Source: Candidatus Staskawiczbacteria bacterium (GTDB lineage Bacteria > Patescibacteriota > Minisyncoccia > Minisyncoccales > Staskawiczbacteraceae). Taken from it: DNA of 64,000 nt. Both the position numbers and the translations under genes were made by a program. The stretch covers positions 66,518-130,517 of the forward strand of contig JAPLYZ010000007.1 in assembly GCA_026395295.1 (NCBI GenBank), in the 5' to 3' direction. Shown in pieces: positions 8,504-9,751 of the stretch (its first letter is position 1; every line of letters starts with the position of its first letter). The notes under the pieces were generated by a model. It searched no databases and was not told the origin of the DNA. It was given only the letters and a program-made list of their open reading frames with translations.

Positions 8504-8532
8504 TTGAAAACTGGCGAAAAACATGATAGATT
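8504..8532 (+). promoter_or_regulatory. sigma70-like promoter upstream of tRNA-Leu 5' fragment / GIY-YIG / tRNA-Leu unit
   Basis: TTGAAA -N17- TAGATT, about 9 nt before the G that starts the tRNA-like sequence at 8542. Confidence 0.35.
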
Positions 8533-8541
8533 ATAAGCAAT

Positions 8542-8605
8542 GCCGAGGTGGCGGAATTAGCAGACGCACGGGACCTGCCTGCCGGCAGGCAGGCTCAAAA
8601 TCCCG
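8542..8605 (+). other. partial duplicate of tRNA-Leu 5' half (acceptor, D-arm, anticodon stem/loop) with a 20-nt palindromic hairpin inserted in the anticodon loop
   Basis: 8542-8574 is identical to 8851-8883. A 20-nt CTGCCTGCCGGCAGGCAGGC insertion sits between loop positions 32 and 33, followed by TCAAAATCCCG. The T-arm and acceptor 3' strand are missing. Confidence 0.6.
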
Positions 8606-8613
8606 ATACGCAT

Positions 8614-8850
8614 ATGTACTATGTCTATATAATAAAAAGTGAAAAAAGGAATTATAATTACGTTGGAATTACCAACAATCCCGAGCGACGGATAAAAGAA
8701 CATAATCGAGGATATAATAGAATAACTAAGCCCTATAAACCTTTTAAAATAATATTAATTGAGAAACATTTTGATAGAACCGAAGCCAGAAAAAGAGAAA
8801 AATTTCTAAAATCTGGATATGGCAAAGAATACGTTAAAGGCATCCAATAA
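8614..8850 (+). CDS. GIY-YIG nuclease family protein (UPF0213/YhbQ-like)
   Basis: YYVYIIKSEKRNYNYVGITNNPERRIKEHN...KPFKII, a GIY-YIG motif; 78 aa from the internal ATG. The ORF-track start at 8548 lies inside the tRNA fragment. Confidence 0.8.
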   Translation: MYYVYIIKSEKRNYNYVGITNNPERRIKEHNRGYNRITKPYKPFKIILIEKHFDRTEARKREKFLKSGYGKEYVKGIQ

Positions 8851-8934
8851 GCCGAGGTGGCGGAATTAGCAGACGCACGGGACTCAAAATCCCGCGACAG
8901 CAATGTCATGAGGGTGCAACTCCCTCCCCCGGCA
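8851..8934 (+). tRNA. tRNA-Leu (anticodon CAA), type II with long variable arm
   Basis: Cloverleaf folded by hand: acceptor GCCGAGG/CCCCGGC (one A-C mismatch), anticodon loop CTCAAAA, long variable arm. The T-loop TGCAACT is non-canonical with G at position 55. Discriminator A; CCA not encoded. Confidence 0.75.
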
Positions 8935-8936
8935 CA

Positions 8937-8976
8937 ATCAAAAAGCGAGTCATCACCATTTGACCCGCTTTTTATT
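8937..8976. terminator. hairpin + T-run between tRNA-Leu and the convergent MBL-fold gene (bidirectional terminator candidate)
   Basis: AGCGAGTCA..TGACCCGCT stem followed by TTTTTATTT. Confidence 0.4.
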
Positions 8977-8983
8977 TGATTCA

Positions 8984-9751
8984 TTAAGCAGTATATTCTT
9001 CTAAAGGGTTGGGCAGGATTATTTTTAATCCGGTTGAAGGGATTGCTTCTTTTACTTTTTTCCTTGTTTCGTCATTGAACGCTCTTTTGAAGTGAGCCAA
9101 CGCCAAACATTTTACATTCTGCCTTTTTGCCATTTCAAATACATCAACAGCCGCAACGTGCCCCTTAATTCTTTGGTCAAACATATAGCATTCGTGCATT
9201 AAAATATCAGCATTTTTATAAATCTTCTCGGTCCCCTCATCAAATGGTCCGTCCCCGCTGTAACAAACAACCTTATTGCCGCCCGCCTTGCCACGAGGCA
9301 GGTCATCAATCCTGATGGCAAGATTGTAGGCTGTATGACCGGTCTTGGCAAAAGATAATTTTAAATCGTTAAACTGAATTTCCTTACCATCCTCTGCCAT
9401 TATAAAATTTATTTTAAAACCATAGCTATCTATGCCAAAGTAAGCGTGCTGGCATAATCTTTCAATGTCTGCCTTAACCTGCTCAGAACAAATTATTGCC
9501 AGATCTTTTTTTCTTTCTTCCTCAAGCATACGACCCAAAAGAGCCGGAATTCCAAACAAATGGTCAGAGTGCCTGTGGGTAATATACAAAGCGTCAACCA
9601 AAGAATGATCCTGCGTATATTTCCACAGCTGCCGGACGGCAGAATCTCCGCAATCAAGCATTAACGCGGTGTTTTCTGATAAGACTAAGTGCGAATGATT
9701 GGGGTACCTTTCGTCAAAAGCCTCCCCTGTTCCTAAAAAAATTACTTTCAT
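8984..9751 (-). CDS. MBL-fold metallo-hydrolase
   Basis: HRHSDHLFG metal-binding motif; beta-lactamase fold signature. Confidence 0.7.

Follow-up and report, generated by a model that had tools for sequence, protein, structure and literature searches.

A small GIY-YIG nuclease gene and a 20-nucleotide palindrome at tRNA-Leu genes across bacterial phyla: a candidate counterpart of the Ssn nucleases and their hairpin repeats

Layout of the tRNA-Leu locus

We describe a tRNA-Leu locus in a stretch of 64,000 nucleotides from Candidatus Staskawiczbacteria bacterium (GenBank assembly GCA_026395295.1, contig JAPLYZ010000007.1, positions 66,518 to 130,517; hereafter the window, to which all coordinates without a locus label refer). 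The gene of a single-domain GIY-YIG nuclease lies here between a partial and an intact copy of tRNA-Leu(CAA), and the partial copy is interrupted by a palindrome of 20 nt that we call PAL. The intact tRNA (8851-8935, forward strand) is called by ARAGORN and matches the Rfam tRNA model with 47.1 bits (gathering score 29), whereas the upstream copy is called as a tRNA by neither program; a complete upstream tRNA with a canonical intron, considered in the original prediction as a possible outcome, was thus not found.

The partial copy consists of two parts, both on the forward strand. The first (8542-8573, tRNA nt 1-32, 100% identical to 8851-8882) spans the 5' strand of the acceptor stem, the D-arm and the 5' strand of the anticodon stem. 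The second (8594-8605, tRNA nt 33-44, 12 of 12 nt identical to 8883-8894) holds the anticodon loop and the 3' strand of the anticodon stem, at the end of which the copy stops. The original prediction had reported a duplication of 33 nt. Indeed 8542-8574 equals 8851-8883 in 33 of 33 nt, but the duplicated stretch of the tRNA comes to 44 nt and includes, besides the 5' acceptor strand and the D-arm, the entire anticodon stem-loop.

PAL (CCTGCCTGCCGGCAGGCAGG, 8574-8593, without strand) separates the two parts as an exact insertion between tRNA positions 32 and 33 (insertion sites are written below as 32/33 and so on), at the start of the anticodon loop. Comparison of the two repeats confirms that the insert is exactly 20 nt long and self-complementary. 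Its sequence had been given correctly, though in a register (CTGCC...GGC) shifted by 1 nt from the perfect palindrome; the register is ambiguous because a C is shared at the junction. When read as CCTGCCTGCC and GGCAGGCAGG, the two arms of 10 nt are 100% complementary, and a hairpin set within the anticodon stem is predicted for DNA and RNA alike. PAL occurs once in the window, even with 3 mismatches permitted, and there is a single GIY-YIG gene in it; by chance about 0.06 perfect 20-nt palindromes are expected per 64 kb (64000 x 4^-10).

The nuclease gene (8614-8850, forward strand, 78 codons and a TAA) starts 8 nt past the end of the tRNA copy. Its stop codon (8848-8850) touches the first position of the tRNA, so that the gap is 0 nt and not the single nucleotide initially proposed. 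The insert as a whole measures about 290 nt, contains one open reading frame (ORF) of 78 aa and duplicates the 5' end of the tRNA, not its 3' end; at this tRNA gene we found neither an integrase gene nor a direct repeat of the tRNA 3' end, by which an integrase-type element would be recognized.

A consensus scan places a sigma-70-like promoter with a TG-extended -10 element (TTGAAA-N17-TAGATT, 8504-8532, forward strand) upstream of the fragment, ending 9 nt before it. By the scan alone this predicted promoter is not significant (5 sites against 3.5 expected), yet an identical element stands at the same distance before the tRNA or the fragment in three related loci (L236, L239 and L241). Between the promoter and the tRNA no second promoter-like or terminator-like site was seen. 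The conserved promoter, the lack of intervening signals and the stop codon touching the tRNA (the gap is 0-15 nt in 37 of the 45 comparable cases discussed below) bear out the proposal that fragment, nuclease mRNA and tRNA very probably form one transcript.

Some features of the neighbourhood deserve mention. Several positions of the intact tRNA-Leu(CAA) are unusual: A18 replaces G18, G55 replaces U55, position 59 is a C, and the acceptor stem contains the mismatch A5.C68. Both bases of the G18-psi55 elbow contact are therefore altered, and the unusual T-loop (TGCAACT, with G55) is present as originally reported. Five orthologous tRNAs reach 56-57 bits with the Rfam model, about 10 bits above the tRNA of the window; the A18 change is present in the upstream fragment too. 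A tentative terminator-like inverted repeat (AAAAAGCGAGTCA and TGACCCGCTTTTT, 8935-8978, without strand, 18-nt arms, 83% complementary), not called by the terminator scan, sits between the tRNA and a convergent gene (8984-9751, reverse strand) for a metallo-beta-lactamase (MBL)-fold hydrolase, the orthologues of which belong to the Pfam family Anti-Pycsar_Apyc1 / Lactamase_B_2.

The nuclease and its annotation

The assignment of the 78-aa product to the GIY-YIG enzymes was correct: it matches Pfam PF01541 with 63.3 bits (cut-off 22.6, E=2.7e-17), and it shows the catalytic residues together with the beta-beta-alpha-beta-alpha fold of this superfamily. Y5, Y16, R26, H30 and E62 are invariant across 33 sequences of the family. 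The AlphaFold2 model (pLDDT 94.6, topology E-E-H-E-H-H) finds its best folds in SLX1, UPF0213 protein BH0048, I-TevI and the N-terminal domain of UvrC. Considering sequence and fold together, the best matches are UPF0213 proteins (BH0048 and EF2693; 1zg2, E=1.2e-11) and SLX1 (TM 0.72). The catalytic domain takes up all 78 residues, and the joined C-terminal DNA-binding domain by which Seg and I-TevI enzymes are recognized is absent. NCBIfam contains no match. The sole match in PADLOC, a weak one to Cas3b, was rejected as spurious and assigns no defence family; PHROGs returned generic homing-endonuclease families alone, with weak matches.

In the public annotation the gene is a 100-aa protein (P0001) that starts at a GTG at 8548 and is read through the tRNA fragment and PAL; this gene call is probably over-extended. 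Similarly, many N-terminal extensions of database entries are translated pieces of tRNA or PAL (for instance 'LPAGRQ' or 'AELVD'). Gene callers prolong such ORFs upstream via tRNA fragments, via the palindrome or via an entire upstream tRNA, which leaves spurious N-termini such as MAELADARDLPAGRQ or ...GFESH...; among the over-extended entries are P0005, P0007, P0012, P0217 and P0221. We also considered that the ATG of the ORF derives from the variable arm of the tRNA, an idea that was dropped because it is inconsistent between loci.

A large family linked to tRNA-Leu

Relatives were collected with a pattern scan using one genome per species; 541 were confirmed and 80 loci were kept, each examined over a stretch of up to about 15 kb. 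The nuclease-plus-hairpin cassette is widespread across bacterial phyla: the 80 loci come from Patescibacteria, Bacteroidota, Ignavibacteria, Nitrospirota, Omnitrophota and Planctomycetota, and from metagenome-assembled genomes labelled Proteobacteria (some taxonomic labels of such genomes may be wrong). The nuclease of the cassette is minimal, with 77-80 aa and no domain besides the catalytic one, and at E<=1e-10 the family comprises 6,273 clusters at 50% identity. Proteins of different phyla are 65-78% identical, and the nearest neighbour of a protein often comes from another phylum.

About 75 of the 80 ORFs directly adjoin a co-oriented tRNA-Leu found by ARAGORN, with CAA, GAG, CAG, TAA or TAG as anticodon. 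The tRNA lies downstream of the ORF in 39 loci (configuration A), the ORF lies downstream of the tRNA in 22, mostly from Bacteroidota (configuration B), and in 6 the ORF stands between two tRNA genes, usually both tRNA-Leu (configuration AB). Five further ORFs read into a downstream tRNA, three times tRNA-Leu, once tRNA-Asn (L059) and once tRNA-Arg (L080). The short gaps between stop codon and tRNA mentioned above were counted over the 45 downstream tRNAs of the 39 A and 6 AB loci. On the far side of the ORF a partial copy of tRNA-Leu is usual, as a 5' fragment in configuration A and as 3' fragments in B, and these copies are mostly 100% identical to the neighbouring tRNA. Tandem copies or arrays of fragments occur in L034, L045, L048 and L066. 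In Bacteroidota loci the fragments and hairpins come after the ORF and, frequently, after a terminator as well. Masked runs of N hide sequence in L007 (3275-3373) and in the upstream region of L075; they start inside a second copy of fragment and palindrome downstream of the ORF, and the downstream tRNA is therefore unreadable there.

Phages as the main home of the cassette were considered and rejected, because the family is found at only 4 loci among 2.9 million viral contigs. In the literature we found no paper that ties small GIY-YIG genes to tRNA-Leu or to a palindrome of this kind.

Gain, loss and selection at the relA locus

The gene order around the cassette (TopA, RelA, fragment with PAL and ORF, tRNA-Leu(CAA), MBL, SHMT) is common to the window and its relatives, and the ORF is found downstream of relA in 13 other loci of Patescibacteria (RelA identity 36-63%). 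In L236 the nuclease is 84% identical and a PAL with one mismatch occupies the same 32/33 site, while in more distant relatives PAL lies at 12/13 (L001) and at 14/15 (L044). Two related Staskawiczbacteria have empty sites (L239, RelA 76% identical; L241, RelA 70%), where tRNA-Leu(CAA) is uninterrupted and neither fragment, PAL nor ORF is present at it. This agrees with the original view of the cassette as an insertion. Universal conservation of the arrangement had been named as a sign against that view, and what we observe goes halfway: it is wide, given the 13 other relA loci, but not universal. The conserved locus is hence polymorphic for presence and absence, with occupied sites in the window, L236, L044, L001 and others, and the comparison of empty with occupied sites indicates that the cassette has been gained or lost. 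A further candidate for an empty site, L191, was rejected because its gene order differs.

The promoter described above stands 8-10 nt upstream of the first tRNA nucleotide in L239 and L241, and before the fragment in L236. Since the tRNA of the empty sites has the same promoter, the fragment is the original 5' end of the tRNA together with its promoter, and the promoter of the resident tRNA-Leu very probably now drives fragment, ORF and tRNA.

The ORF is under strong purifying selection. Between the window and L236 the nonsynonymous divergence (dN) is 0.088 and the synonymous divergence (dS) 1.23, which corresponds to a dN/dS of about 0.07. Over the same divergence each fragment has remained equal to its own tRNA: the D-loop bases are lineage-specific, with AATTAGCAGA in both copies of the window and AACTGGCAGA in both copies of L236. 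Such a match per lineage shows concerted evolution, either by gene conversion or by re-formation of the fragment. PAL has kept 19 of its 20 nt at the same site, which argues that it is not neutral junk.

At yet another Staskawiczbacteria locus (L240, 5340-6112) the tRNA-Leu(CAA) between relA and the MBL gene is overlapped by an ORF of 238 aa that lies 3' of it and has a faint match to LAGLIDADG_3. This suggests that the tRNA-Leu locus between relA and MBL attracts other endonuclease genes too.

PAL as a repeat unit

Of the 80 loci, 39 have an exact PAL no more than 400 nt from the ORF, a number that rises to 55 when up to 2 mismatches are allowed. Its density is 0.89 per kb near the gene against 0.015 per kb in the rest of the same loci, a 60-fold enrichment. 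About 50 copies could be mapped to the adjacent intact tRNA, and every one of them is an exact insertion of 20 nt between two consecutive tRNA positions, with no target duplication and no deletion. The sites fall in the D-loop (14/15, 15/16, 17/18, 22/23 and 23/24), at the edges of the anticodon loop (32/33, as in the window, and 39/40) and in the T-loop (62/63 to 70/71, including 64/65 and 68/69). When PAL was deleted in silico, a complete tRNA was restored in 1 of 289 copies; this copy is located on a viral contig (L225, 2239-2330), where an otherwise complete tRNA-Met carries PAL in its variable loop.

We also searched for PAL alone and recovered at least 120 metagenome contigs and 35 viral contigs. 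Among the matches listed, the PAL-bearing contigs span a GC content of 0.29-0.71, phage contigs included, and 15 of 169 PAL copies have a GIY-YIG relative or a tRNA at a distance of 600 nt or less. No conserved flanking bases and no longer element were found around PAL, and the flanks are compositionally unbiased. PAL is depleted in coding sequence, as long ORFs hold 46% of the copies but 80% of random positions. PAL is therefore best described as an independent, invariant repeat unit that belongs neither to the tRNA nor to the inserted ORF. None of the searchable papers mentions the exact 20-mer. A general rule that PAL always sits in hairpin loops was tried as well, and holds for the tRNA copies alone.

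Several copies of PAL lie in frame within genuine and partly essential genes, where they mostly read xLPAGRQ. The copy in SecA (L162, 1197-1216) is an exact in-frame insert of 7 aa compared with SecA of E. coli. Others are found in a CopA-type ATPase (L173, 12286), in a GH115 gene (L110, 4699), in PurH (L117, 1401) and in two further genes with LigA- and PheS-like motifs recognized by eye (L135, 8498; L089, 5257). A unit of 20 nt needs one extra base for an insertion in frame. As a separate observation, the flanks of dispersed PAL copies share 7-mers in 14% of the cases against 4.7% of controls, and in many cases (L083, L126, L209, L194, L222 and others) both flanks consist of the same sequence of 8-20 nt or of spacers that resemble tandem repeats. 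PAL may induce or prefer local duplications.

Not all members of the family carry PAL. A subfamily whose C-terminus reads GQGRKFLD (L033, L062, L242 at 1245-1320 and L244 at 60-120) has other hairpins instead: GTCGCC-N3-GGCGAC at 23/24, and CCCGCC-N3-GGCGGG, CCAGCC-N3-GGCTGG or TCCGCC-N3-GGCGGA at 15/16 or 32/33, the latter with compensatory changes in the stem. As these proteins have different hairpins at the same tRNA positions, the type of hairpin co-varies with the nuclease subfamily. Two Algoriphagus loci (L034 and L048) contain a 22-nt variant of PAL and further hairpin inserts.

Comparison with known systems

The closest parallel is offered by the Ssn nucleases (CDD cd10448), single-domain GIY-YIG proteins of about 94 aa that bind the NTS/SRM hairpin in single-stranded DNA (ssDNA) and cleave a few nucleotides upstream of it (Chenal et al. 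2025, PMC11893778). NTS/SRM repeats are found on the flanks of the ssn gene as well as dispersed over the genome, Ssn modulates natural transformation in Neisseria, and SsnA neither binds RNA nor acts on it; tRNA is never mentioned in the main text of that paper (PMC11893778). Both systems have a single-domain GIY-YIG protein of less than 100 aa with similarly spaced catalytic residues (Y6, Y17 and E64 in SsnA; Y5, Y16 and E62 here). In either system a repeat that can form a hairpin flanks the gene and has further copies at other genomic sites, and the sequence of the hairpin is kept even between distant lineages. As a proxy for SsnA we used a 94-aa GIY-YIG protein of S. meliloti from the plasmid collection, flanked by CGTCATCCTCGGGCTTGACCCGAGGATCC, a repeat that is clearly NTS/SRM-like. 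Aligned with hhalign, our family is homologous to this protein (97.3% probability, E=1.8e-11, 37% identity). The nuclease may thus be seen as a sister of the Ssn endonucleases and of UPF0213/SLX1, as far as these comparisons of sequence and fold can tell.

The differences are nevertheless substantial. The protein described here is shorter and ends in KSGxGKEyLK rather than in the Ssn-type RWxREWKIxLIE, its gene is embedded in tRNA-Leu duplications, and PAL is a perfect 20-mer without orientation and with unbiased flanks. PAL does not fit the SRM consensus (HGTCWY-N0-2-YYVSBRH-N0-5-WNVSBRG-N0-2-RNCYNB) and has no conserved GTC flank. For UPF0213 proteins we know of no assigned function and of no association with a repeat or a tRNA. 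SLX1 cleaves branched DNA in a structure-specific manner (PDB entry titles), but differs by its RING domain and its partner SLX4.

SegB, a free-standing GIY-YIG homing endonuclease of phages T4 and T6, is encoded in tRNA clusters (PMC2330249; PMC13096335). It cuts inside the tRNA sequences of these clusters and drives a recombination-dependent tandem amplification of tRNA plus segB units (PMC13096335), for which microhomology to the tRNA 5' end is used; SegB lacking its 28 C-terminal residues is still active (PMC2330249; PMC13096335). A GIY-YIG gene among tRNA genes is what both cases share, and the amplification is reminiscent of the tRNA copies, partial or in tandem, at the present loci. SegB is longer, however, is encoded by phages and is tied neither to one tRNA species nor to a palindrome, whereas the present family is chromosomal, has a protein of 78 aa and is specific to tRNA-Leu.

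PAL can furthermore be compared with short palindromic units that are dispersed in intergenic DNA, as are the Rickettsia palindromic elements (RPEs) and the repetitive extragenic palindromes (REPs). RPEs are well over 100 bp long and restricted to a lineage; REPs are species-specific and linked to RAYTs, which resemble HUH (Y1) transposases. RPEs have also inserted into genes for RNAs and, in frame, into those for proteins, which PAL has done in SecA and others. In contrast to both, PAL has 20 bp, is invariant across phyla and is linked to a GIY-YIG gene.

Discussion

On balance we lean towards an Ssn-like explanation, in which a structure- or ssDNA-specific nuclease and its cognate hairpin would form a cassette that is gained and lost in tRNA-Leu genes and expressed from the tRNA promoter. 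Transcription from the resident promoter would run first through the old tRNA 5' end (nt 1-44), then through the ORF and last through the complete tRNA-Leu. A cut of RNase P at the 5' end of the tRNA would free the mRNA just past its stop codon, by which, we propose, the tRNA stays functional and the nuclease is made from a strong promoter. PAL would be the cognate motif of the nuclease, the counterpart of the NTS/SRM repeats for Ssn, inserted exactly and without target duplication into the loops of dispensable tRNA copies, between genes and at times also in frame within genes. Where the hairpin is extruded in single-stranded or branched DNA, the nuclease might bind it and nick beside it; the breaks would be repaired through recombination between tRNA-Leu sequences, which could generate and homogenize the partial tRNA duplications. 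The cassette would in this manner be gained or lost at tRNA-Leu genes in a homing-like fashion, with the conserved tRNA as homology arm, and the same nuclease activity together with host repair might seed new copies of the palindrome.

Several observations weigh against this explanation. Among the matches listed for the palindrome, which were selected by sequence, 154 of 169 copies have no GIY-YIG relative or tRNA within 600 nt, and many of the remote copies are found in high-GC phage contigs, where the nuclease family is rare. Given these remote copies and the rarity of the family in phages, another factor could mobilize PAL. PAL also lacks the oriented HGTCWY flank that Ssn cleavage requires, and outside tRNAs we found no enrichment of flank complementarity around it. 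The similarity of the family to UPF0213 BH0048 (E=1e-11) is about as high as that to the Ssn-type protein. Since GIY-YIG enzymes cleave DNA by hydrolysis, with no covalent intermediate, such an enzyme alone cannot paste a palindrome. Finally, the long retention at the relA-tRNA-Leu locus and the purifying selection fit a host-beneficial gene equally well.

This last point leads to the rival that we take most seriously, though we still consider it unlikely: a domesticated, vertically inherited nuclease of the host, active on ssDNA in housekeeping or competence and placed in a tRNA operon for strong expression, with fragment and PAL as by-products. The recurrence downstream of relA in 13 other Patescibacteria loci, the low dN/dS (about 0.07), the identity of 65-78% between phyla and the role of Ssn in the transformation of Neisseria would all suit such a gene. 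It accounts poorly, however, for the empty sites in close relatives, for the differences between phyla in tRNA-Leu isoacceptor and in the side of the tRNA, for the tandem copies and fragment arrays (L034, L045, L048 and L066) and for nearest protein neighbours that often belong to another phylum, and a benefit in expression leaves the specificity for tRNA-Leu unexplained. Improbable, in our estimate, is a device at the level of RNA, where fragment and hairpin act as a functional mRNA leader, either as a 5' stem-loop for stability or as an element for the processing or regulation of a tRNA-embedded mRNA, and the palindrome is selected for that role. It might be argued in its favour that co-transcription is likely, that the fragment upstream of PAL is nearly always 100% identical to the tRNA, that PAL is kept in 19 of 20 nt over a dS of about 1.2, that the hairpins of the other subfamily show compensatory changes and that the PAL hairpin nests in the anticodon stem. 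But the Bacteroidota have their fragments and hairpins downstream of the ORF, often past a terminator, the same 20-mer is found at hundreds of unrelated sites, intergenic as well as coding, its position in the leader varies (12/13, 14/15 and 32/33), and SsnA does not bind RNA.

The original prediction had offered the footprint of a homing endonuclease that entered the anticodon loop, or a degenerate intron-like arrangement. The presence/absence polymorphism, the weak PHROG matches to homing endonucleases and the precedent of SegB in tRNA clusters are in line with a classical element of this type, but the anatomy largely excludes it and we regard it as very improbable. The protein of 78 aa has no DNA-binding domain. 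What interrupts the anticodon loop is the 20-mer alone, which in relatives occupies many other positions (a dozen tRNA positions overall) and which also turns up in over 150 contigs where neither a tRNA nor a GIY-YIG gene is close by, whereas the junction of the ORF lies past tRNA position 44 and hence not in the anticodon loop. For a ribozyme there is no room; even at permissive E-values the intact tRNA is the sole Rfam match at the locus, with no match to an intron, and because the interrupted copy is truncated, removal of the insert restores no tRNA. An even fainter chance we give to a toxin directed at tRNA, which would cleave tRNA-Leu as RNA and be countered by the hairpin-bearing fragment as RNA decoy or antitoxin. 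Only the strict linkage to tRNA-Leu and the tRNA-like fragments speak for it; SsnA is inactive on RNA, PADLOC assigns no match of this kind, and PAL is dispersed far from tRNAs. To our knowledge, the GIY-YIG enzymes characterized so far act on DNA.

Within the Ssn-like explanation a bolder version can be formulated, which we put forward as speculative and rather doubtful: PAL itself may be mobile and would then be the smallest element described, a non-coding hairpin that leaves no target-site duplication and that would colonize tRNA copies, intergenic DNA, phage genomes and, in frame with the addition of LPAGRQ, even essential genes in many bacterial phyla, moved in trans by the mini-nuclease resident at tRNA-Leu and by host repair, with the tRNA-Leu duplication serving the nuclease as a safe harbour and as a homology arm between phyla.

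Conclusions

If the Ssn-like explanation is correct, the principle of a tiny nuclease with its own hairpin repeat would extend to a second, very large clade, to bacteria of candidate phyla and to a life inside tRNA-Leu genes. The cassette also offers a testable candidate for the origin and spread of short palindromic repeats in bacterial genomes. For annotation it is relevant that gene callers routinely extend such ORFs through tRNA fragments and the palindrome, yielding 'LPAGRQ' N-termini; the cassette could account for partial tRNA copies and for over-extended calls of a 'GIY-YIG nuclease family protein' in annotated genomes. An invariant 20-mer with a dedicated enzyme of 78 aa would, moreover, be an attractive tool for work on ssDNA.

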